A DNA stretch of 64,000 bases from NCBI GenBank assembly GCA_016932785.1, contig JAFGCJ010000002.1, positions 13,983 to 77,982 of the forward strand. Reading direction: 5' to 3'. The notes beneath the pieces are model-generated. The model saw only the letters and a list, made by a program, of their open reading frames with translations, had not been told where the DNA came from and made no database searches. Source of the DNA: Candidatus Dojkabacteria bacterium. Lineage in GTDB: Bacteria > Patescibacteriota > Dojkabacteria > SC72 > JAFGCJ01. Below are positions 2,563 through 36,513 of the stretch, in pieces (position 1 is the stretch's first letter; each line of letters opens with the position of its first letter). A program made the translations under genes and the position numbers.

Positions 2563-5500
2563 CTACTCTATTCTAAAAGGCTCAATTATCTCTTTTACCT
2601 CGTCTGTAAGCTCGATACCACGTTTAAGCTGCATTGTTTTTACGTCATCTCCGTCGGGAATGGATATCATTACGGGTGTATCGCCGGGGTTTTCTTTTAA
2701 GGCTTGCTTAAGCCTCTTTATATCATCTTTGTTAGCGTTCGTAGGTATTCTCAAACTAAGTCCATCAGAAGACTTTGTAGCTTTGTCTAGATCAATGACT
2801 CTTAGCGAATCACAGATAATGCTTCTCGTTCCATCGCGAACATTAACCTTTCCTATAAATATGGTCGGAGTGCTCTCTTCAAGATTTTTTGAAAATTTTT
2901 CATACGTACTGGGAAAAAGAATTACCTCAATCTCACTGGTCTGATCTTCTATGAGGAGAAAGGCCATACGTTTATTTTCTTTCTTTGTCGAAATAGCTTT
3001 TATATTGGTTATAAGCCCGCATGCTTGTACGTGTGCATTTGGTTTCATCTGTTTTATTTCAGAAATATCCTTGACACCTATTGCTGAAAGGTATGACTTA
3101 ATTCTTCCAAGGGGATGGGCGGTAATATACATACCTAGAAGTTCCTTTTCCCATTCGATTTTGTTTGTGTCTGTGGCTGGCTCAACCTGTGGAAGTGGTG
3201 TCGGAGTAATCTTATGAGTCTGGCCTTCCTCTTTGCCCATAGAAAATATGTCAATCTGACCCTCTGCTTCAGAATTTTGTCTCTTCTTATAAGTCTCATG
3301 CATGGATGGGAGAGCGGCAAGTAGGCTGTTTCTTTCTCCAAAGTTGTCCAGAGCTCCTACTTGAACCAGATAGCTTATGGTTTTCTGGTTAATTTTATTA
3401 AGAGGAATTCGATACAGGAAGTCATCAAAGTTCTTGTATGGTCCGTCTTTGTCTCGAATATTTATGATAGTTCTGACTGCTGATTCACCGATATTCTTGA
3501 TTGCCGCCAGGCCAAATCTAATGTTGTATTTCTCTTCAATGGAAAAGCCAGATTTGCTTTTGTTTACGTCCGGAGGAAGGATGTTTATCCCTTTTCTGTT
3601 ACACTCCGCAATTATAAGAGAAATTTTATCGAAATCGTCGATTTCAGACTTGAGTAGTGCTGCCATAAATTCCACAGGATAATGAGTCTTTAGGTAGGCC
3701 GTTTGAAAAACGACTAGAGCATAGGATGCTGCATGTGGTTTGTTGAAAGCATAGTTTGTAAATGGAATGAATAGTTCAAACAGTGCCTCGGCTTTCTTTT
3801 CTGAGAGTCCGTTTTCCTCGAATCTCTTTAGTAGGTCGTCCTTCATATCAAACAATATCTCGGGTTTCTTTTTACCGGTAAACTTCCTCGCTTTGTCGGC
3901 TTCTGGCCAGGTCATTCCCGCAAGTGCTACTGTTGTCATCATTATATCCTCTTGATAAACAAGGAGTCCGTATGTAAGTGAGAGAAAGTCCTTCATTCTT
4001 GGATCAATGAAAGTAACAGATTTTTTCCCGGATTTTCTGTCGGCATATTCTTGTTGAAACTGGTTTGGTCCTGGTCTTACAAGAGCTAGAGATGCTGAGA
4101 TATCAAATATTGATTCTGGTCTAAGAACTTTCGCAGTGTTTTTCATGGGACCTGTCTCTAGCTGGAAGACCCCAAGAGTATCCAGATCTTTTATCAATTT
4201 GTATGTTGCTTCGTCATCAAGAGGGAATTTTGTTGGGTCAATATCAATTCCTCTTTCTTCTTTAATGATTTTTACTGATTCTGAAATAGTATCTAGACCG
4301 GTAAGACCAAGAAAGTCAACCTTGAGAAGCTTTAATTCCTCGAGTGAGTCCATTTCGTATTGAGTGATCATTCTGCCGTCTTCGCCTAGTGTTTTATCCC
4401 AGATTACAGGGCAATAGTCGACTATTGGTCCTGGCGTGACCAGGATTCCACATGCATGTATTCCCTGGCTTTTGGCGACACCCTCGATTTTTTTTGCGGT
4501 ATCTATCAATTTCGCCGCGTCGGGGTCTTGCTTGGTTAGCTCCTTTAATTCTGGAACTTCTCTTAGTGCCCTATCGATATCTACTTTTGCAAGTCCCTGT
4601 CCAGATGGCGGAATCAATTTTGCTATCCTGTCTACATATGCCAGGGGAAGTCCCAGTACTCGTCCGGCATCTCTTATGGATCCTCTGGCCTGCATTCTTC
4701 CAAAGGTAACAATATGGGCTACCGATTCTTTGCCATATAAATCTATAGCGTAGTTAATAACCTCTTCTCTTCTTGAGCTTGCTACGTCGATGTCAATATC
4801 CGGTGCTGACGGCCTTCCCTTGTAAAGGAACCGTTCAAAAGGAACCTGGAAATCCAGAGGATTTGCTGTGACTATACCTAGTATGTAGGATACGAAACTT
4901 CCCGCCGCTGATCCTCGAGTTGTGAAGGGAATATTGTTGTTCTTGATCCAATCTGTGAAATCCATGTTCATTACTATGTAGCTTGAGTACCCCATCTCAG
5001 AGATTACTTCAAATTCGTACTCTGCCCTCTTCTTCTCGTCTTTTGTTAATTCTCTATTGATTACTTTAGGAGCCCGCTGTTTTATGAGGTCGTACAGATA
5101 TTTGTCGTAGTCTTTTTTGTATGAATCCGGTATTGGAGGCTCAGGAAAAACCCAATCCTCAAATCCCAAATCAAAGACCTCGCACATATCTGTGACTTTC
5201 TGGGTGTTTTCTATGGCCTCAGGAATGTCTTGGAATAGCTCTTCCATTTGTTCAGGACTTTTGAGGTAGAATTCGTCTGTTTCCCTTGTCAGCCGCTGTT
5301 CATCCTCAAGTCTTTTCCCGGTATTTATGCACATAAGAACCTCTTGTGCCAGGGCATCCTCTTCTTTTATATAATGAACGTCGCAGGTTGCTATTAGTGG
5401 AAGCTCGAGATCTTCTGCTACCTGGATAAGGCCTTTATTTGCAACTTCCTGATCTTTCATACCGTTTCTCTGGAGTTCAACATAGAATCTATCCTTCCCA

Positions 5501-5991
5501 AATAGCTCCTTGTACCACTGTGCAATGTTGTGAGCATCTTTCAAATCTCCGCCGAAAACCTTTTTAGATATTTCGCCTGTGAGACATCCGGATAGTGCAA
5601 TCAAGCCGTCTTTATGTTTTTCCAGAAGCTCCTTGTCGATTCTAGGTTTGTAATAGAAACCGTCGATGTGTGATTTGGAAACAAGTTTGATCAGGTTGTC
5701 GTAGCCTTTTCTGTTTTCTGCAATTAGTACAAGATGATGAGGCTTTTCGTCTAGCTTTGCAATTTTTTGTGTGTGTTTTCTTGGTGCAACATATACTTCA
5801 CAACCTATGATCGGTTTGATATCTTCCTTCTGGCATTCTTTATGAAATTTGTGAGCACCGTACATTACTCCGTGATCGGAGATGCCGAGAGATTGCATGC
5901 CCAGTTCTTTTGCTTGAGGAATTAGCTTTTTAATTTTTGGTAATCCATCGAGTAAAGAGAACTCAGTGTGTACGTGCAGGTGGGTAAACAT
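2563..5991 (-). CDS. dnaE: DNA polymerase III alpha subunit (DnaE)
   Basis: N-terminal PHP domain (MFTHLHVHTEFSLLDG...GISDHG). 1142 aa with polymerase core and an OB-fold-containing C-terminal region. Confidence 0.9.
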   Translation of the reverse strand: MFTHLHVHTEFSLLDGLPKIKKLIPQAKELGMQSLGISDHGVMYGAHKFHKECQKEDIKPIIGCEVYVAPRKHTQKIAKLDEKPHHLVLIAENRKGYDNLIKLVSKSHIDGFYYKPRIDKELLEKHKDGLIALSGCLTGEISKKVFGGDLKDAHNIAQWYKELFGKDRFYVELQRNGMKDQEVANKGLIQVAEDLELPLIATCDVHYIKEEDALAQEVLMCINTGKRLEDEQRLTRETDEFYLKSPEQMEELFQDIPEAIENTQKVTDMCEVFDLGFEDWVFPEPPIPDSYKKDYDKYLYDLIKQRAPKVINRELTKDEKKRAEYEFEVISEMGYSSYIVMNMDFTDWIKNNNIPFTTRGSAAGSFVSYILGIVTANPLDFQVPFERFLYKGRPSAPDIDIDVASSRREEVINYAIDLYGKESVAHIVTFGRMQARGSIRDAGRVLGLPLAYVDRIAKLIPPSGQGLAKVDIDRALREVPELKELTKQDPDAAKLIDTAKKIEGVAKSQGIHACGILVTPGPIVDYCPVIWDKTLGEDGRMITQYEMDSLEELKLLKVDFLGLTGLDTISESVKIIKEERGIDIDPTKFPLDDEATYKLIKDLDTLGVFQLETGPMKNTAKVLRPESIFDISASLALVRPGPNQFQQEYADRKSGKKSVTFIDPRMKDFLSLTYGLLVYQEDIMMTTVALAGMTWPEADKARKFTGKKKPEILFDMKDDLLKRFEENGLSEKKAEALFELFIPFTNYAFNKPHAASYALVVFQTAYLKTHYPVEFMAALLKSEIDDFDKISLIIAECNRKGINILPPDVNKSKSGFSIEEKYNIRFGLAAIKNIGESAVRTIINIRDKDGPYKNFDDFLYRIPLNKINQKTISYLVQVGALDNFGERNSLLAALPSMHETYKKRQNSEAEGQIDIFSMGKEEGQTHKITPTPLPQVEPATDTNKIEWEKELLGMYITAHPLGRIKSYLSAIGVKDISEIKQMKPNAHVQACGLITNIKAISTKKENKRMAFLLIEDQTSEIEVILFPSTYEKFSKNLEESTPTIFIGKVNVRDGTRSIICDSLRVIDLDKATKSSDGLSLRIPTNANKDDIKRLKQALKENPGDTPVMISIPDGDDVKTMQLKRGIELTDEVKEIIEPFRIE

Positions 5992-6180
5992 AGCAATATT
6001 CTACAGAAATTAAACTTTAATGAAAATTGTGTTGTAGAAATAGTGTTACTATGGGTATTTTTTGTGTAGATGTATGGTGGGTGTTTGAATAGGTTTGCAT
6101 ATTTAATAAAGACGTTATTAATAGTATAATCCTATAGTAATAAGATTCTACCTAAGTATCTTATATTTGTTTAGAAATTT

Positions 6181-6681
6181 TTGGGAAAGGAACAATCAGA
6201 ACAATCAAAAGATTTTAGTCCCGAAGAGGCAGACGAAGTGGAGGCACAGATGTTGGCGACAATGGGCAATACTGCTATGACGGAACAGCTTTGCGCTGAT
6301 TTCGGAGTGCTCTTTGGAACTGTAAATATCCCGGCTATCGGTATATATAAAAATTGTGTATATGTTAAGGGCTCGGAAAAAGGAAAAGGACATTTCGCAG
6401 CATTGACTAATTATGCTGATAACGGGGCTTCTGCCAGAGTTGCGTTTTTATTTCCAAGTGAAGATTCAAAAGGTCCGTACAGGCCATTTGATTTATTTGT
6501 TACAGCTGTATTAGCGGCTGGGGCTAAGCACGACGTGAAGTTGGCATTTGTTCGGGTTGGGGATGTTGTTGCCGGGTGTAAGGATGATCCCTTTGGTCAA
6601 GGGGGGCCAGTAGAATGCTGGAGAAATTTGGGATTTGATATGTCGCCTGATGGGGATTGGTTGGTTAAGGCTGTGAAATAG
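6181..6681 (+). CDS. Hypothetical protein (166 aa), TTG start, locally GC-richer
   Basis: ORF with non-ATG start. No recognisable motif. Codon usage is G/C-richer than neighbouring genes. Confidence 0.3.
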   Translation: MGKEQSEQSKDFSPEEADEVEAQMLATMGNTAMTEQLCADFGVLFGTVNIPAIGIYKNCVYVKGSEKGKGHFAALTNYADNGASARVAFLFPSEDSKGPYRPFDLFVTAVLAAGAKHDVKLAFVRVGDVVAGCKDDPFGQGGPVECWRNLGFDMSPDGDWLVKAVK

Positions 6682-28540: not shown

Positions 28541-29227
28541 GTGTTATTTTTACCCGCGATGGATACGAATTTCATGAAGAAAGTTGAACAGGATACTGTT
28601 AAAAGAAATCTGGATGTGAGGCCTGGCGATACAGTCAAGGTTCATATTCTTATTAAAGAGGCCGGTAAGGAGAGAGAGCAGATCTTTGAAGGTGTTGTTC
28701 TGTCTGTTAGCGGTTCCGGTGCGCGTAAGACTTTTACGGTGAGGAAAATTAGTCACGGTGTAGGTGTAGAGAAGATTTTTCCCGTTAATTCTCCTTTGAT
28801 AAAGAAGATTGATGTTATGGAAAGGGGTAATGCACGGCGATCCAAGCTTTACTATATGAGAAAGAGGATTGGTAAGAGATCTTTGGATGTAAATCTTAAA
28901 GAGGGTTTTGAAGCTATTATTGAAGAGGAAGAAGTTGAGGAAAAACCGGAGAAGAAAGACGAAGAGCCTGCAGAAGAAAAGGTCGAGAAGAAGGCAGAAG
29001 AACCGGCCGAGGAAAAGGTTGAGAAGAAGACTCCCGCAGCCGAGGAAAAAGTTCCTGAAGCAGAAGAAAAATCCGGTGATGCTAAAGAGAAGAAGGCTCC
29101 TGCAAAAGCCAAAGCAGAACCTGAGAAAAAAGACGAGAAAAAAGAACCCAAGGATAACAAGAAATCCGCTGAGAAAGGATCTGAAAAGGCCCCTAAAAAA
29201 GACCCCCCAAAAGAAGCCAAAAAGTAA
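28541..29227 (+). CDS. rplS: 50S ribosomal protein L19 with ~110 aa K/E-rich C-terminal extension
   Basis: L19 core VRPGDTVKVHILIKEAGKEREQIFEGVVLSV...TFTVRKISHGVGVEKIFPVNSPLIKKIDVMERGNARRSKLYYMRKR. The tail contains EEPAEEKVEKKA twice (tandem 30 nt DNA repeat) and further KE/AP repeats. The true start is probably an internal Met near 28559-28574. Confidence 0.75.
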   Translation: MLFLPAMDTNFMKKVEQDTVKRNLDVRPGDTVKVHILIKEAGKEREQIFEGVVLSVSGSGARKTFTVRKISHGVGVEKIFPVNSPLIKKIDVMERGNARRSKLYYMRKRIGKRSLDVNLKEGFEAIIEEEEVEEKPEKKDEEPAEEKVEKKAEEPAEEKVEKKTPAAEEKVPEAEEKSGDAKEKKAPAKAKAEPEKKDEKKEPKDNKKSAEKGSEKAPKKDPPKEAKK

Positions 29228-30407: not shown

Positions 30408-30483
30408 GGGGCGCTAGCTCATCCGGTAGAGCAACTGGCTTTTAACCAGTAGGTGCGGGGTTCGAGTCCCCGGCGCCTCACCA
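30408..30483 (+). tRNA. tRNA-Lys (anticodon UUU)
   Basis: Manual fold: acceptor GGGGCGC/GCGCCTC, D arm GCTC-ATCCGGTA-GAGC, anticodon stem ACTGG/CCAGT with loop CTTTTAA (anticodon TTT), T arm CGGGG-TTCGAGT-CCCCG, discriminator A, encoded CCA. Coordinates are +/-1 nt. Confidence 0.85.
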
Positions 30484-30518
30484 CTTTTTATCGAGTTTTT
30501 TGGATTTTTCTGCTGTTA

Positions 30519-31322
30519 ATGTTATCTAAATATGCAATAAATAAGCAAAAGGGGAATATTGGAGAGGCATTTGTACAGTTTTTCTTATCTAGATTTGCGC
30601 TTGTTCATAAGGTGGATGGTGGAAATGATCTTGGTAATGATTTCTTCTGTGAACTATTTTTGGAGGAATATCCTACGAACATACTATTTTATGTACAGGT
30701 AAAGCTTTGGTGCTCTGAGCCTAGGGTTAAAGAATCTACAAAAGATTATTGGAGAAAGGCTCAGATACCTGTGTATTTATTCTGGGTGAAATGTGCAGGT
30801 AAAGAATTCGATGATATTGTTTTGGACGATGCTTTAGATGAAGCTTCATGGGTAGTTAAATATAAAAGAATGACAGCTGAGTTGCACAAAGAAAAGGCTG
30901 AAGGATTTGAAGATTTTGATTTGTTGAAATTTAAGAGAGATTTAATGATTGATTATGCTAGGTCGATGTTTATACGTGGTTTCACCCCTGTTTTTGATGC
31001 GGGAATGTTTTTCACAGAAAAGGAGAGAAGTAATCTTGACCTGGCTAGATTTCAAAATCCCGCGAGGAGCCTCATAAAGGAAGATCAATACGTAGAGACA
31101 GTACTTGATGAAAGCTGGTCTCATTTTATCTCTGTAGCACATTTGTTACATAGAATGTACAAAGAACTTAAGAAAGAAGAATATTTGAAAGGTGCTGAAG
31201 ACTGCATTAATCTTGCCGAAACATTATATGGAATATCTAATGTCACAGATGTTGATCATGTCTTGGCCTATTTATGGAGCGTAAAGAAAGAAATACGTAA
31301 TTCACGAAATCAGTTAGGTTAA
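30519..31322 (+). CDS. DUF4365-type PD-(D/E)xK nuclease-fold protein
   Basis: GNIGEAFVQFFLSRFALVHKVDGGNDLGNDFFCELF...ILFYVQVK reproduces the DUF4365 pattern (iGE...D.GxD...E...hVQVK, a restriction-endonuclease-like D/E-K core). The ORF-track GTG start at 30453 would overlap the tRNA-Lys 3' end, so the internal Met at about 30519 is preferred. Confidence 0.5.
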   Translation: MLSKYAINKQKGNIGEAFVQFFLSRFALVHKVDGGNDLGNDFFCELFLEEYPTNILFYVQVKLWCSEPRVKESTKDYWRKAQIPVYLFWVKCAGKEFDDIVLDDALDEASWVVKYKRMTAELHKEKAEGFEDFDLLKFKRDLMIDYARSMFIRGFTPVFDAGMFFTEKERSNLDLARFQNPARSLIKEDQYVETVLDESWSHFISVAHLLHRMYKELKKEEYLKGAEDCINLAETLYGISNVTDVDHVLAYLWSVKKEIRNSRNQLG

Positions 31323-31477
31323 AGGGTGCCTAATAAGTATTGATTGTCAATAATTTTCCTTGAAGCCAGATGAGAGAGCAATTCCTCACAGCAATGTTTA
31401 AAGCGATAGGCTGGGATATCAATAATGAACAAGGTTATGCAGAACAGTATAAAGAGGTTGTTCATGGAGACAAAGAG

Positions 31478-33049
31478 TTAATCCATATATTCTTTCAAAT
31501 ATTTTCTTAACCTCTTATCCACAACATACACATAAGTTCCACGAATGCCCCGTGTAAGCAATGTTTTGTAAATATTTTTAATGTAGCTTTCAAGCTCGTT
31601 CGGATCAGAAATAGCTCTTTTACCATTAAAATCAAGATATTTACTTTTGTCTATAACAATACTCTTTTTATCCTTGTCATATGAGATTTCCGGCCCAATA
31701 ATAACTCCAGCATAGTTAAGGTCATACCCCTGAATTGTATGGATGCAACCAACCTCATTTACGGCATTCTCTGAGTTGACCCAATCCTTTGTAACGCTGT
31801 TCCATCTTAACTTAACGTCGTCAATTTCTATATCGTAATCAATAGACTCATCTTTTTTGGTTTTCCATTCCCATGAGTACCCAGCTAATAGTCTTGAAAG
31901 TCCGATATTCTTGTCTTGTTCTTTTATGGCATCAACTAGTTCTCTTATATCGCCGAATAGCTTAAGTTCATATTCGTCGAATTTGACCTTCTCTTTCTGC
32001 TCGACATTGAGTATTCGTCTTATATATTCGATATAGTCCTGTCCGCCCCTCACTCTCATTTGGGAAATCAACGCGTATTCTTTCATCTTGTACTTTCTTA
32101 TATGGTGCTCCCTTATATCTGCTGGCTTAATGCTCTGATTTTTGTCGTAGAAAAGAACTTGATGTTTGGAGGAGTTAATAATCCAGTCTAGCTCAGTCCC
32201 CTCTTCTTTTTTGAGGCCTAAGGTTTTGTTTATCCTATCGAAGTCTCTGTAGTTAGTTAGGTTTACTCTTCTTTGTAATCTGTGCGCTTCATCAACAATT
32301 AATATGTCGTAATCGAATTTGATGACGTCGTTTGGTCCTATGACCATACCCGGATTTAATCCTTTTACTGATTTGAAGACTTTTTTTAGTGTTTTCCTTA
32401 GGGAAGTCATAGGAATTACCAAACCAATCCTGAGGTCTTGTGCCCAATCCTGTTCATATAGATATTTCATTAAGTATACCGCCACTATTGTCTTTCCGGT
32501 TCCTGGCTCTCCTGAAACAATACTGGTTTGGTGGCTGTCTTTTTTAATACTTTCCGTTATCTCCTGAACAACATTAAGCTGGTCTTCGCTAAGGCTTTTA
32601 TAGGGAGAATATTTAAACAAGTCACTATTTTCTATCTGAACAAGAGCTTGATTAGCCAGTTCTCTCTTTAGTAGTTCTTTCCATATAACTTCAAATTTTG
32701 CTTGATAACGTTCTCGGTCATAGTAGTCCGATTCTTTAACACCTGAATTACCGTTCTGGAGTAGATATTTGCCATCGCCGGACATGTATTTTATTAAGGA
32801 AGATTCAATGTCTAGAGTAGCCGATTTATTGTACTCGTCATCAGCAATTACATGTAAATTCTTCAGCCTTGCTCTTTCAGGATTTTCTATTTGTTGTTTT
32901 GCCCTATTATAAGCACTTACTGATTCTCCAACATATGCTTCTCTTCCATCTTCGATTATGTATACAATCGGCCAATTTAAGCCAAATCTGTAATCCTTAA
33001 TTTTCTGGATTGTGCTTGGAGTAAAACTGTATTTGGTTATCTCATACAT
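31478..33049 (-). CDS. GIY-YIG nuclease-like N-terminal domain fused to DUF2075 (Schlafen-helicase-like) P-loop NTPase
   Basis: N-terminal WPIVYIIEDGREAYVGESVSAYNRAKQ (GIY-YIG-like). Walker A IVSGEPGTGKT. Walker B/DEAH-like ILIVDEAHRL. The C-terminal region is typical of DUF2075 proteins. Confidence 0.6.
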   Translation of the reverse strand: MYEITKYSFTPSTIQKIKDYRFGLNWPIVYIIEDGREAYVGESVSAYNRAKQQIENPERARLKNLHVIADDEYNKSATLDIESSLIKYMSGDGKYLLQNGNSGVKESDYYDRERYQAKFEVIWKELLKRELANQALVQIENSDLFKYSPYKSLSEDQLNVVQEITESIKKDSHQTSIVSGEPGTGKTIVAVYLMKYLYEQDWAQDLRIGLVIPMTSLRKTLKKVFKSVKGLNPGMVIGPNDVIKFDYDILIVDEAHRLQRRVNLTNYRDFDRINKTLGLKKEEGTELDWIINSSKHQVLFYDKNQSIKPADIREHHIRKYKMKEYALISQMRVRGGQDYIEYIRRILNVEQKEKVKFDEYELKLFGDIRELVDAIKEQDKNIGLSRLLAGYSWEWKTKKDESIDYDIEIDDVKLRWNSVTKDWVNSENAVNEVGCIHTIQGYDLNYAGVIIGPEISYDKDKKSIVIDKSKYLDFNGKRAISDPNELESYIKNIYKTLLTRGIRGTYVYVVDKRLRKYLKEYMD

Positions 33050-33066
33050 AATTTTCGATCAGTTTT

Positions 33067-33423
33067 TTAGAGTTTTGTATATTTTTTGCTTGTTCCCTTA
33101 GCCTTCTCTACCGGGTATTTTTTGCTGTTTTGTTCGATTTTTTTTTGAACGATTTCGTCAATGTTAACATCGAGTGTTTCTGCTAGCAGTGCGATATATA
33201 TTAATATGTCGGCTAATTCCTCGATCACTTCTTTCTTGTCATACTTGGAGGTCCATTGAAAGCATTCTAGTAATTCTCCTGCCTCTATTGATATTGATTT
33301 GGCAAGATTTTCTTCTGAATGGAACTGTTTCCAATCTCTATCATCTCTAAATTTAATGAGTTTCTCTATGATTTCTCTTTTCATTAAAATTTCATTAAGA
33401 ATTGTTTTTTTTAATTCTAGCAT
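33067..33423 (-). CDS. MazG-like nucleoside triphosphate pyrophosphohydrolase
   Basis: EENLAKSISIEAGELLECFQW...EELADILIYIALLAETLDVNIDEIV carries the EExxE/D metal-binding helices of all-alpha NTP-PPase (MazG/HisE) proteins. 118 aa. Tail-to-head with the DUF2075 gene, 17 nt gap. Confidence 0.65.
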   Translation of the reverse strand: MLELKKTILNEILMKREIIEKLIKFRDDRDWKQFHSEENLAKSISIEAGELLECFQWTSKYDKKEVIEELADILIYIALLAETLDVNIDEIVQKKIEQNSKKYPVEKAKGTSKKYTKL

Positions 33424-33518
33424 AATGTGTGGGTTTACTAAACAAAGGAGATACAGTAATGAAGGTCTATCAGTTGTAATAGGTTAGCAAATATTCTCTC
33501 AACATGGTTCGATTTCTT

Positions 33519-33570
33519 TCCCCAGTTCCTACCCCTACCCCATCCCCACCCTCACCTCCGCTCCCCGCCC
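33519..33570. repeat. C-rich homopyrimidine tract; strong G-quadruplex motif on the minus strand
   Basis: Plus strand: CCCCAGTTCCTACCCCTACCCCATCCCCACCCTCACCTCCGCTCCCCGCCC. Minus strand: GGGCGGGGAGCGGAGGTGAGGGTGGGGATGGGGTAGGGGTAGG, with at least four G3-4 runs separated by 1-2 nt loops. Located in the divergent intergenic region between the MazG-like gene and the CDS at 33625. Confidence 0.6.
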
Positions 33571-33624
33571 AAATATTTTTCTATGCTACAATGAAGTTGT
33601 ACTAACCTAATCGCTTCACCCACC

Positions 33625-33939
33625 ATGAACAAAATCACTCTCGGTATTATCTGCGGACTAGCCTTTGGAATTCTCGATGTTCTCATAATGATCCCTATGC
33701 CTGAAAAAGATAAACGTAAAAAGACTGAAGCCATGATTGGAGCTTTCCTCGAGCGATTCATGGTCGGATTGATAATTCCGAATTTAAATCTCGGAACCGG
33801 ATACGTAGTTACTGGTATCATTGTTGGACTTGGGCTTAGTGTCCCTACTGCGGTTATTACTCGGGCTTATGCCCCTATCATCGGGATCGGCGTTGTTGGC
33901 GGTTTGATTATTGGGCTAATTTCTAATGCTGTAATATAA
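33625..33939 (+). CDS. Small glycine-zipper integral membrane protein
   Basis: 104 aa. Three hydrophobic segments rich in GxxxG (GIICGLAFGILDVLIMI; GIIVGLGLSV; GIGVVGGLIIGLI). Confidence 0.4.
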   Translation: MNKITLGIICGLAFGILDVLIMIPMPEKDKRKKTEAMIGAFLERFMVGLIIPNLNLGTGYVVTGIIVGLGLSVPTAVITRAYAPIIGIGVVGGLIIGLISNAVI

Positions 33940-33951
33940 CACGGTAATATA

Positions 33952-34209
33952 ATGCGGCAATATTCAAAGTTTACAGACAACAAGGATCCTGTAGTCGCTG
34001 TACTCCTTGATCGACTGTTTCAGGTTCTTGATGAAATCACGGGCGGTGAATATGAAGTGGAAGGTAAAAAACCTATCTCACTTATTGATGGAAAAGCTCT
34101 GGTGGATCGGACTCTAAATCATTTCTCGGAGATTGATACGAAGTATCAAAAGATAATTGGGGTTAAGGAGAAACAAGTAGCCATTGGTGACAAATTTGAA
34201 TTTGTATAG
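33952..34209 (+). CDS. Small hypothetical protein (85 aa)
   Basis: Compact ORF immediately after the membrane protein. No motif recognised. Confidence 0.3.
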   Translation: MRQYSKFTDNKDPVVAVLLDRLFQVLDEITGGEYEVEGKKPISLIDGKALVDRTLNHFSEIDTKYQKIIGVKEKQVAIGDKFEFV

Positions 34210-34235
34210 TACTCTAATTTAGTAGTATATAGATA

Positions 34236-34970
34236 GTGCAAAAATCTTACAAAAACCTAGCAAAATACTACGATCTCTGCTTTCAGCAAAAAGATTACCA
34301 GAAGGAGGTAGATTTCATATTGGAACTTGTTGATAAATATGGCATCAATAAAGAATCAATCCTAGATGTTGGTTGTGGGACCGGGACACATCTTTGCCTT
34401 CTGAAAAACCATTTTGACAATCTCTATGGCGTCGATTTAAACAAGGAAATTCTTGAAATCGCAAAAACCAAGGTTCCTGGCGCTCATTTTCTCAATGCAG
34501 GAATGTCCGACTTTAAGATTAAAGAGAAGTTTGATGTCATTACCTCTTTATATTCAGTTTTTAACTACAATAAAGATGTGGATTCTGCCACTAAGACGCT
34601 GCAGAATTTCCATAAGCACTTACAGGAAAAAGGAGTTGTAATAATTGCTCTGTATAACGAAAGAACTACTGATAAGAAAATTTCCCTTCATGTGGGTAAA
34701 GATGACGATACAAAAGTGGCAAAGATAGATCAGTTCAGGTATATACCTAAGGACAAAACTGTGAAATCCGAACATTTAGTTCTGATTAAAGACAATGAAG
34801 AGATAGATTTTGAAGTTGAGGATGATGATATTTATAGGATTTTTGATTTTGATGAAATAGAGAGTATGGTAAAGGAGTCAGGATTTTCGAATAGCGAGAT
34901 ATATGATAGGTTTTCGTTCGATAAAGCGGCAAATAAGTCTAAATTTCCTGTGTTGGTGTTAAGGAGGTGA
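34236..34970 (+). CDS. Class I SAM-dependent methyltransferase (TylM1/DesVI-like small-molecule N-methyltransferase family)
   Basis: YYDLCF...ILDVGCGTGTHLCLL (SAM motif I), GVDLNKEILEIAK, DVITSLYSVFNY. The overall layout matches sugar N,N-dimethyltransferase-like MTases. Confidence 0.6.
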   Translation: MQKSYKNLAKYYDLCFQQKDYQKEVDFILELVDKYGINKESILDVGCGTGTHLCLLKNHFDNLYGVDLNKEILEIAKTKVPGAHFLNAGMSDFKIKEKFDVITSLYSVFNYNKDVDSATKTLQNFHKHLQEKGVVIIALYNERTTDKKISLHVGKDDDTKVAKIDQFRYIPKDKTVKSEHLVLIKDNEEIDFEVEDDDIYRIFDFDEIESMVKESGFSNSEIYDRFSFDKAANKSKFPVLVLRR

Positions 34971-34979
34971 GTATGCACA

Positions 34980-35125
34980 TAACTCATCCCTCTCAAGATG
35001 TGTAATATCAAGGGCTTGGTTACAGAGGGCCCGTGCCTTTTGAGCAGTTATCCCTTTAAGTAGTTGTGAATATGGTAGTTGAAGATCAGCTATAGGTGAC
35101 GTGAATTAATTATATCATATGTAGC
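34980..35125 (-). pseudogene. Degenerate duplicate of the 5' end (first ~45 codons plus ~25 bp upstream) of the gene at 36876-37697
   Basis: About 88% nucleotide identity to 37560-37725 over ~145 bp. Start codon ATG is mutated to ACG. Reading frame is retained for ~45 codons (TSPIADLQLPYSQLLKGITAQKARALCNQALDITHLERDEL) before ending. Confidence 0.55.
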
Positions 35126-35316
35126 GAGTACATATTATAGGATAACAAAGTCTTTTGCTGATGGAAGTTCCTCTTTTGTGGTATAATGCACCAGTTCGAA
35201 ACAAAGTAGGACTTTTGTGAATTTGTTTGTCTCCCCTTCAGAGTAAATCTTAATTCCCAGGTAACTATTTTGGCATGACCGGAATTACCGGGAATTAAAT
35301 TCTACATAATAATACA

Positions 35317-36513
35317 GTGAGTAAATACAATTATAACCACAGAAATCGTGGATACAATGACTATGCAAAGCGAAACGGAAGACGTCGTGGGGGGCGTAAT
35401 AGCTTTCATGGGAGTAAGATTGATCCCAAAAAATATGTCTCAAGTGCTGAGGCTGGACCATCGTGCTCTATTTATCAGGATGACTGCAAATTTGAAGATT
35501 TCAACGTTGCTTCGGTGATCCAGTCGAATATCAGAGCTAAGAATTTCAGCCAACCGACAAAGATACAAGCCCAGGCAATTCCATATGTACTTTCCGGTAA
35601 GGATATTTTGGGATTAGCGGGAACTGGATCTGGTAAAACTGCGGCTTTTCTCGTTCCGATGATTGATAAGGCTCTCAAAGATCGTGGTCAGAAGATCTTG
35701 ATTGTCACTCCAACAAGAGAGCTTGCCGCCCAGATTAGAGATGAATTTGTTACTTTCTCAAAAGGAACGAATCTCAGGTCGGCCGTTGTTATCGGAGGTG
35801 CAAGTATGGGGAAACAAATTTCGGTATTGAAGCAAAACCCTCAGTTTGTTATTGCTACTCCTGGAAGATTGAAAGATCTTTCTCAAAGGGGGGTGATTCA
35901 TTTTGATGTATTTAACAATATTGTACTTGATGAGGTGGATAGGATGCTCGATATGGGTTTTGTCCATGAGATAAAGCAAGTTATTTCAAAATTGAGCCAA
36001 AACAAGCAGTCGATGTTTTTTTCAGCTACTATGAATCCTAAGATCGAGGAAATTGCCAGATCGTTACTTAGGGATCCTGTGAAAATTCAGGTTGAGAGGC
36101 TTTCTTTAAAGAGAAACGTGGAACAGAATGTCGTTAAAGTTAGACCAGAAGAGAAAATTGAGAAGCTCCATGATCTGCTGAATGGCGAAGATTTTCACAA
36201 AGTTCTGATCTTTTCGAGGACTAAATATGGCTCTGATAAACTTTCAAAGACGCTTTTAAAAAGAGGCTTTTGTGTAGATTCGATACATGGTGGCAAAACA
36301 CAGTCAAGAAGAGAAAGAGTAATACGTAAGTTTCGTCAGGATGAGATTAAGATTCTCGTTGCAACAGATGTTGCTGCAAGAGGATTGGATATTGACGATA
36401 TTACCCATGTTATAAACTACGACGAGCCGAATTGTTATGATGACTATATTCACAGGATCGGCCGTACTGGCAGAGCCGGGAAAAAAGGTAACGCGCTCAC
36501 ATTTGTTGGGTAG
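35317..36513 (+). CDS. DEAD-box ATP-dependent RNA helicase (motif II variant DEVD)
   Basis: Q motif, Walker A AGTGSGKT, PTRELA, VLDEVDRMLDMGF, SAT, HRIGRTGRAG. R/G-rich N-terminus. Confidence 0.8.
   Translation: MSKYNYNHRNRGYNDYAKRNGRRRGGRNSFHGSKIDPKKYVSSAEAGPSCSIYQDDCKFEDFNVASVIQSNIRAKNFSQPTKIQAQAIPYVLSGKDILGLAGTGSGKTAAFLVPMIDKALKDRGQKILIVTPTRELAAQIRDEFVTFSKGTNLRSAVVIGGASMGKQISVLKQNPQFVIATPGRLKDLSQRGVIHFDVFNNIVLDEVDRMLDMGFVHEIKQVISKLSQNKQSMFFSATMNPKIEEIARSLLRDPVKIQVERLSLKRNVEQNVVKVRPEEKIEKLHDLLNGEDFHKVLIFSRTKYGSDKLSKTLLKRGFCVDSIHGGKTQSRRERVIRKFRQDEIKILVATDVAARGLDIDDITHVINYDEPNCYDDYIHRIGRTGRAGKKGNALTFVG

Follow-up and report, generated by a model that had tools for sequence, protein, structure and literature searches.

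The 64,000-nucleotide stretch of contig JAFGCJ010000002.1 analysed here (hereafter the window), from a Candidatus Dojkabacteria bacterium, carries on its minus strand two closely spaced genes: a small MazG-like gene of the DCTPP1/RS21-C6 type (33067..33423; an open reading frame (ORF) of 118 residues) and a gene for a 523 residue DUF2075 protein (31478..33049). Both ORFs lie where a sequence-only reading of the window had put them, separated by the 17 nt it reported (33050..33066, minus strand, from the MazG stop codon to the DUF2075 start codon), and the motifs it quoted from the larger protein (PIVYIIEDGREAYVGES, GEPGTGKT and ILIVDEAHRL) are all present. That reading had the MazG-like gene downstream, however, which is wrong; since transcription runs along the minus strand, the MazG-like gene is the upstream member of the pair. 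A terminator scan of 31000-34300 identified no terminator-like sites between them, and the two genes form one operon. Proteins identical to both products are found in a Candidatus Dojkabacteria genome at NCBI, named "nucleotide pyrophosphohydrolase" and "DUF2075 domain-containing protein". The larger protein begins with a predicted GIY-YIG nuclease domain (residues ~1-105; 32735..33049, minus; pattern Y30, Y39-G41, R49, E82, N99), which a helical linker, seen in the secondary structure of the model described below (residues ~106-151; 32597..32734, minus), joins to a predicted DUF2075/Schlafen group-3 helicase-ATPase domain of superfamily 1B (SF1B), assigned by Pfam PF09848 (residues ~152-523 with the stop codon; 31478..32596, minus). 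In this last domain the Walker A motif GEPGTGKT is encoded at 32489-32512 and the Walker B DEAH, within ILIVDEAHRL, at 32282-32293, both on the minus strand.

Homologs of the DUF2075 gene were compared at 92 loci (7 from reference genomes, 80 metagenomic and 5 on viral contigs), which fall into 81 clusters at 90% identity; linkage was counted over the 78 clusters with enough flanking DNA. An adjacent MazG-like gene was identified in 75 of these 78 non-redundant loci (96%), in 71 cases upstream on the same strand, in three downstream on the same strand and in one downstream on the opposite strand, and the gap between the two genes is typically -4 to +19 nt. In all seven reference genomes, belonging to Caldisericia, Erysipelotrichia, Gammaproteobacteria, Bacillota, Saccharibacteria, Nomurabacteria and Bacteroidota (Aquimarina), the MazG-like gene ends just 5' of the DUF2075 gene on the same strand. 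At one further locus (L077) the MazG-like gene lies 1 kb upstream with a gene for a YhcG/DUF1016 PD-(D/E)xK nuclease (4919-5974, +) in between, and the overlapping gene boundaries make this a three-gene operon variant. The reverse search agreed: for eight of nine close MazG homologs on long contigs, one or more genomes have a DUF2075 protein next to them. The tight, co-transcribed arrangement that the sequence-only reading proposed is supported and strongly conserved, lack of enrichment having been one of the three outcomes it named as refuting, and the linkage between MazG-like and DUF2075 genes is near-obligate and reciprocal across many bacterial phyla. The pair is kept even at ~34% identity on megaplasmids of B. 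mycoides (p419; EXW38_RS28525 and RS28530) and B. thuringiensis (IS5056 plasmid pIS56-233; H175_RS30570 and RS30565), by independent RefSeq annotation, and the two genes co-diverge (mirror-tree r = 0.49, reached in 0 of 999 permutations). MazG-like genes are also partnered with DUF2075 proteins whose N-terminus, to judge from the sequence "RIDF…IVELKQWE" that L014 and L018 contain, appears to be of the PD-(D/E)xK type, as in the antiphage enzyme Nhi. As the pairing spans both nuclease types, the functional link would seem to be between the MazG-like enzyme and the DUF2075 module, whichever nuclease the latter carries.

The linkage bears directly on the simplest alternative, namely that the adjacency is meaningless and a housekeeping MazG gene merely flanks an integration hotspot that receives DUF2075 genes. 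A case of this kind occurs in Clostridium thermobutyricum and its relatives (L014-L017), where an identical MazG-like gene (6001-6315) and a conserved 151-152 residue ORF with no Pfam match border a variable hotspot; in C. thermobutyricum these two genes stay constant while the cargo upstream varies by strain, being a PD-(D/E)xK-type DUF2075 gene, a type I restriction-modification (R-M) system with a ParA-like gene, or PglZ together with GmrSD. Against a general explanation of this sort, however, the flanks of the 75 linked loci, which represent many phyla, are unrelated, start and stop codons typically overlap or nearly do so, the two genes co-diverge, the pairing is kept down to 34% identity and with either of two nuclease types, and the window contains no second copy of either gene. 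The linkage, the tight gaps and the co-divergence effectively exclude chance adjacency, and we consider the hotspot explanation very improbable.

The N-terminal half of the large protein was difficult to assign by sequence. Pfam GIY-YIG (PF01541) gave no match to residues 1-164 of the window protein even at E-values up to 10, a PDB profile search with an alignment of the N-terminal region returned noise only, and a PDB sequence search with the full 523 residue protein identified no matches. Because GIY-YIG detection by sequence failed in the window protein, structure prediction was needed, and an AlphaFold2 model was built from 52 homologs (predicted local distance difference test (pLDDT) 88.5 and predicted template modelling score 0.83 for the full model). 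The predicted N-terminal domain has the alpha/beta GIY-YIG fold, a three-stranded sheet with flanking helices, and its best structural matches include UvrC and a SLX1 homolog. Residues Y30, Y39, G41, R49, E82, N99 and N101 do not vary among 52 full-length and 23 N-terminal sequences; the order of the motifs and the Pfam alignments of homologs served to equate them with catalytic residues. Their spacing resembles that in UvrC and I-TevI. Other family members do reach the Pfam model: against a cutoff of 22.6 bits, PF01541 scored 32.8 for L020, 32.2 for L087 and 22.7 for protein P0048, and L116 has a precomputed PF01541 match. This GIY-YIG subfamily comprises ~470 clusters at 50% identity (E-values of 1e-10 or less), and its full-length members are, nearly without exception, helicase fusions of 520-750 residues. 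Taken together, the model and the family alignment support a predicted GIY-YIG nuclease that keeps its catalytic pattern, in agreement with the GIY-YIG N-terminus of the sequence-only reading, although Pfam is silent on the window protein itself; the catalytic residues, for which an alignment had been called for, are present and invariant in the family.

The C-terminal half was assigned far more readily. PF09848 (SLFN-g3_helicase, formerly DUF2075) matched residues 175-511 with an E-value of 2.3e-66 (224.9 bits against a cutoff of 24), and the match spans profile positions 3-354 of 354. Between the two halves the model has helices at residues 112-128, 136-146 and 155-169, and pLDDT dips at residues 101-110. 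Foldseek searches of the predicted helicase against the PDB identified SF1B helicases with E-values of 7e-10 to 1e-7 overall, including Dna2 (6.9e-10) and human SLFN11 (7zel, 5.7e-9), and also Upf1, RecD/RecD2, nsp13 and Dda. Motif V of the window protein reads IHTIQGYD, and in the family Walker A is conserved in 81 of 81 clusters, DEAH in 78 and motif V in 80. The C-terminal part is, by profile match and model, a two-RecA-domain SF1B fold of the DUF2075/Schlafen group-3 helicases, as the sequence-only reading had recognised. The helicase domain is what the window protein shares with human SLFN11 and the group III Schlafens; at their N-termini, however, Schlafens carry the tRNA-cleaving Slfn nuclease where the window protein has a GIY-YIG domain, and published work on bacterial Schlafen defence concerns the Slfn RNase domain, not the helicase.

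The small protein matched Pfam PF12643 (1.6e-19; 70.4 bits, cutoff 27) and PF03819 (7.9e-6), and its PDB sequence matches are an archaeal pyrophosphatase (4qgp, 8.8e-21) and mouse and human DCTPP1 (6sqw/2a3q, 5.4e-16). The length of 118 residues given in the sequence-only reading is correct for the ORF, but since the identical NCBI protein (P0121) has 105 residues and close homologs have 104-106, the actual product is probably a 105 residue protein starting at Met14 (33384). The metal site holds up on alignment as E47-x-x-E50 and E69-x-x-D72. These four ligands, together with W31, H35 and W57, show no variation among 72 partner MazG proteins (100% conservation), and the ExxE…ExxD site is found in 73 of 75 partner ORFs. 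In our alignment, whose own numbering is used here, E47/E50/E69/D72 correspond to the conserved DCTPP1 acidic residues E63/E66/E95/D98, and W31/W57/Y76 to the conserved aromatic residues W47/W73/Y102. The small protein is, on this conservation, a DCTPP1-type all-alpha (d)NTP pyrophosphohydrolase and is predicted to be catalytically intact. It shares the single-domain all-alpha MazG fold family with DCTPP1/RS21-C6 and the archaeal 4qgp protein, and a C-terminal KYP…G…KY tail with DCTPP1; DCTPP1, however, is a 170 residue housekeeping enzyme that sanitises the nucleotide pool and has no nuclease partner, whereas the 105 residue window protein is locked to a nuclease-helicase. DCTPP1/RS21-C6 are described as deoxynucleoside triphosphate (dNTP) pool sanitation enzymes with 5-methyl-dCTP hydrolase activity.

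The closest functional precedents for the large protein are the nuclease-helicases Nhi (S. epidermidis SERP2475, Bari et al.) and Nhi-like (Millman et al. 2022), both of which are experimentally validated defences. Nhi joins a PD-(D/E)xK nuclease and DUF2075 in one protein that destroys phage replication intermediates; it blocks the accumulation of phage DNA, for which both the nuclease and the helicase activities are needed (Bari et al.), and induction of one Nhi homolog reportedly caused toxicity. Nhi, Nhi-like and AbiO alike have an N-terminal nuclease fused to a DUF2075 (PF09848) helicase of the SF1B type, and they have in common with the window family horizontal spread, frequent plasmid carriage and defence genes nearby. 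Two differences stand out, namely that the nuclease of Nhi is of the PD-(D/E)xK type whereas that of the window family is GIY-YIG, and that Nhi is a stand-alone gene whereas the window family has its MazG-like neighbour in 96% of loci. We conclude that the pair most probably represents a hitherto undescribed relation of the Nhi nuclease-helicases, from which it departs in these two features. As Nhi and Nhi-like are single proteins that combine sensor and effector, we regard as speculation the proposal of the sequence-only reading that the nuclease/helicase and the NTP hydrolase divide these roles between them.

Searches with the 2023 version of PADLOC matched the window protein to Nhi (9.6e-12) and AbiO (9.4e-10), the Nhi model aligning solely to helicase residues 141-380, and the helicase region of family members to the same models at 1e-10 to 1e-16. 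The PADLOC candidate PDC-S14 matches the GIY-YIG region, with E-values down to 2e-9 in family members, and PDC-S41 matches the C-terminal part of the helicase as well as MazG-paired DUF2075 proteins of the PD-(D/E)xK type; both, however, are single-gene candidates without a MazG component, and PDC-S14 is only ~300 residues long. The likeness of the nuclease domain to CMoRE/PD-T4-3, a GIY-YIG type IV restriction endonuclease that acts on DNA with 5-hydroxymethylcytosine or its glucosylated form (5hmC/5ghmC), goes no further than the general GIY-YIG fold. The sequence-only reading had taken MazG-like enzymes to be already in use in nucleotide-depletion immunity, a premise for which we found no support: in a 2026 paper MazG appears with other predicted defence domains, of which it is said that "none have been experimentally validated", and the MazG-like protein of the pair matched none of the PADLOC models. 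Nor did that search place it with the known depletion defences of the dCTP deaminase or dGTPase type. The "MazG" candidate of DefensePredictor is a different system, consisting of MazG and a MazG-C kinase with NMAD/UDG. DUF2075-GIY-YIG fusions are mentioned in passing in the literature, and in our literature search, whose coverage did not extend to Burroughs et al. 2015 (Nucleic Acids Research), we found no paper linking MazG with DUF2075, Nhi or Schlafen helicases.

The family has the distribution of a mobile module. Identity between members from unrelated phyla is 55-70% and the flanking genes are non-syntenic even between two Dojkabacteria genomes, which together argue for horizontal transfer. 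The pair is retained in small genomes of the Candidate Phyla Radiation (CPR). The DUF2075 protein was identified in four of 50,697 phage records and at five IMG/VR loci, numbers that rule out a gene pair mainly of phages. No third gene is conserved, the largest neighbour family being present at 8 of 81 loci and at varying positions. In a raw tally over 150 flanking ORFs, the most recurrent neighbours among the top families listed were RhuM, Fic/DOC, C5 DNA methylase, Mrr_cat, YhcG, zeta toxin, NYN, Bro-N, EVE and AspBHI-N, and single loci have Lit, YobI-ATPase and Mrr as neighbours. The pairs on megaplasmids of the B. cereus group are flanked by HNH nucleases and a zeta toxin. In a CPR genome (L011), genes for HhH-GPD and Pur_DNA_glyco glycosylases lie a few genes upstream of the pair (3082-5435, +), and downstream there are toxin-antitoxin genes (RelB/ParE and PemK).

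Around the pair, the window has a stretch of lower GC content (30600-35400; ~0.35-0.37, versus 0.43-0.46 upstream) that starts right after a tRNA-Lys(ttt) gene (30408-30483, +) and contains, besides the pair, a DUF4365-like ORF, two small ORFs and an S-adenosylmethionine (SAM)-dependent methyltransferase gene. The stretch looks like a small acquired island; an island at the tRNA-Lys gene bounded by attachment repeats was considered and rejected, as there is no tRNA-derived direct repeat and no integrase, leaving only the GC dip. The DUF4365-like ORF (289 residues; 30453-31322, +) is convergent with the DUF2075 gene and has weak matches to DUF4365, a restriction-endonuclease-like family (8e-4), and to the PADLOC model of an Argonaute-associated restriction endonuclease (1e-3); as listed, it begins within the tRNA-Lys gene, and the real start must be further downstream. 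It is not conserved beside the pair at other loci. The methyltransferase (class I; 34236-34970, +) matches PADLOC mad2 of the MADS system (1.4e-17) but may be a generic methyltransferase. In the divergent intergenic region upstream of the MazG-like gene there is a G-rich tract with the potential to form a G-quadruplex (GGGGATGGGGTAGGGG; 33532-33553, minus), and this tract and its surroundings gave two pattern matches versus 0.04 expected by shuffling. We rejected it as a conserved regulatory element, since it is missing upstream of the MazG-like gene at 65 related loci and has no Rfam match. Further away, the ORF at 28541-29227 (+) beside RNase HII, labelled ribosomal protein L19 by eye, has a low-complexity C-terminal tail of ~110 residues rich in Lys, Glu, Ala and Pro.

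The family varies at its C-terminus. In 37 of 78 complete members (47%) the helicase is followed by a LexA/UmuD-type Peptidase_S24 domain with a UmuD-like Cys-Gly site, a GDSM serine and a catalytic lysine, the carriers including P0048 (residues 550-663), L005, L006, L011 and L030-L041; by ORF and Pfam the window protein has no such domain and ends at residue 523. A further subclass of ~560 residues has an insertion following Walker A. The residues retained in the S24 domain suggest that in these variants the nuclease-helicase may cleave itself when triggered by RecA* on single-stranded DNA.

A switch of this kind suits an alternative in which the pair serves quality control of DNA and of the nucleotide pool, the MazG-like enzyme sanitising non-canonical dNTPs and the GIY-YIG helicase processing DNA that contains them or that is stalled at lesions, with RecA* tying the activity of the S24 variants to the SOS response. 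DCTPP1 and E. coli Orf135 sanitise non-canonical dNTPs, and the description of DCTPP1/RS21-C6 as pool sanitation enzymes fits such a role, as do the structural matches of the nuclease domain to UvrC and a SLX1 homolog, the frequency of the LexA/UmuD-type domain, the glycosylase genes upstream of the pair in L011, the housekeeping neighbourhoods at some loci and the retention of the pair in small CPR genomes. The patchy distribution of the family, with horizontal transfer, 55-70% identity between phyla and no synteny, is nevertheless atypical of core repair genes; the pair also rides on megaplasmids beside HNH nucleases and zeta toxin and is found repeatedly among restriction, abortive infection and toxin-antitoxin genes, the sister architecture of a nuclease and DUF2075 is a validated antiphage enzyme, and the GIY-YIG domain matches the PADLOC defence candidate PDC-S14. 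On this evidence we regard a quality control role as unlikely.

The gene arrangement raises another alternative, that the nuclease-helicase is a DNA-damaging toxin and the MazG-like protein its enzymatic or binding antitoxin, for example one that destroys an activating nucleotide; loss of the module or a shut-off of host expression would then free the toxin, and abortive infection would be possible, in which case this explanation overlaps with defence. A small gene that is upstream and translationally coupled (71 of 75 loci, with gaps of -4 to +19 nt), a mobile two-gene unit with no third partner, plasmid carriage, the toxin-antitoxin systems often found nearby and the toxicity of the induced Nhi homolog are all in line with it. 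Against it, the catalytic residues of the MazG-like proteins are 100% conserved, which makes a purely binding antitoxin unlikely; the gene order is reversed or the genes are divergent or convergent in several loci, which would be unusual for classical type II autoregulation; no DNA-binding antitoxin domain is present; and the nuclease-helicases of L027 and L071 are intact without an adjacent MazG-like gene. We consider this explanation rather improbable.

From its conserved linkage, mobility and neighbourhoods, its intact catalytic residues in all three enzymatic modules, its lower-GC setting in the window and its likeness to the validated Nhi, we favor the reading of the pair as a mobile, self-contained Nhi-like module that defends against phages or other invading DNA, and hold this to be somewhat more probable than its negation. 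In the mechanism we envisage, the 523 residue protein would load onto foreign or replicating DNA, translocate with ATP and cut by means of its GIY-YIG domain, and its 105 residue partner would, in the inference we prefer, hydrolyse dCTP-like or base-modified dNTPs, since the closeness of the MazG-like protein to DCTPP1 points to a substrate of the (modified) dCTP type. The two proteins might cooperate in either of two ways: the MazG-like enzyme may destroy phage-specific modified dNTPs and so starve phages that replicate with modified nucleotides, or it may prevent modified nucleotides from entering the DNA of the host, whose chromosome the nuclease-helicase would then leave intact. The occasional alternative neighbours of MazG-like genes, GmrSD and DUF3427 enzymes, have modification-dependent restriction architectures. 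For instance, at a Clostridium sp. C8-1-8 locus with no DUF2075 neighbour (L107; 292-4315, +), the MazG-like gene overlaps a GNAT acetyltransferase gene by 4 nt and lies directly 3' of a gene for a 1055 residue protein with RE_NgoFVII/PLD, helicase and DUF3427 regions, which is the SauUSI-like architecture of modification-dependent restriction.

Several observations weigh against a defence module. The argument is one of guilt by association and of architecture; validated Nhi acts alone, and its published neighbourhood shows no MazG; the PADLOC models of Nhi and AbiO match weakly and cover nothing beyond the helicase core, and no PADLOC model matched the MazG-like protein at an E-value of 0.01 or less. 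Many of the neighbours are housekeeping genes (ribosomal protein S7, ExoVII, sigma-70, ClpP), two of 78 loci (L027 and L071, above) lack an adjacent MazG-like gene, and a LexA/UmuD-type domain in 47% of the family fits a role in DNA damage or repair equally well. There is also no recognisable modified-base reader domain in the 523 residue protein, and without one the modified-nucleotide idea depends solely on the similarity of the partner to DCTPP1.

A bolder version of the defence reading, which we put forward as a doubtful proposition, is that the MazG-like enzyme is specific for base-modified dNTPs (e.g., 5-hydroxymethyl- or 5-methyl-dCTP, or hydroxymethyl-dUTP) and provides self/non-self logic through the nucleotide pool and not through DNA. 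If true, this would amount to a principle of "pool sanitation as immunity" that differs both from methylation-based R-M and from bulk dNTP depletion; bacterial homologs of human DCTPP1 and of the SLFN11 helicase would be paired in it; and the half of the family that bears S24 would gain a DNA-damage switch, with cleavage at the Cys-Gly site triggered by RecA*.

As the pair occurs in cultivable strains of the Bacillus cereus group, experiments on it should be straightforward. A role in repair instead would make the pair an unusual, mobile "pool-plus-DNA" sanitation unit, present even in reduced CPR genomes. Functional coupling of the two proteins in bacteria could prompt a question for human cells, which have homologs of both in DCTPP1 and the Schlafen helicase domain. 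If the pair is a defence module, the Nhi class would be extended by a member with a GIY-YIG nuclease, by an obligate enzymatic partner whose nucleotide house-cleaning family has yet to be validated in immunity, and, in half of the family, by a self-cleaving switch of the LexA/UmuD type; and the small MazG/DCTPP1-like genes scattered over defence islands, plasmids and phages would acquire a concrete and testable role.

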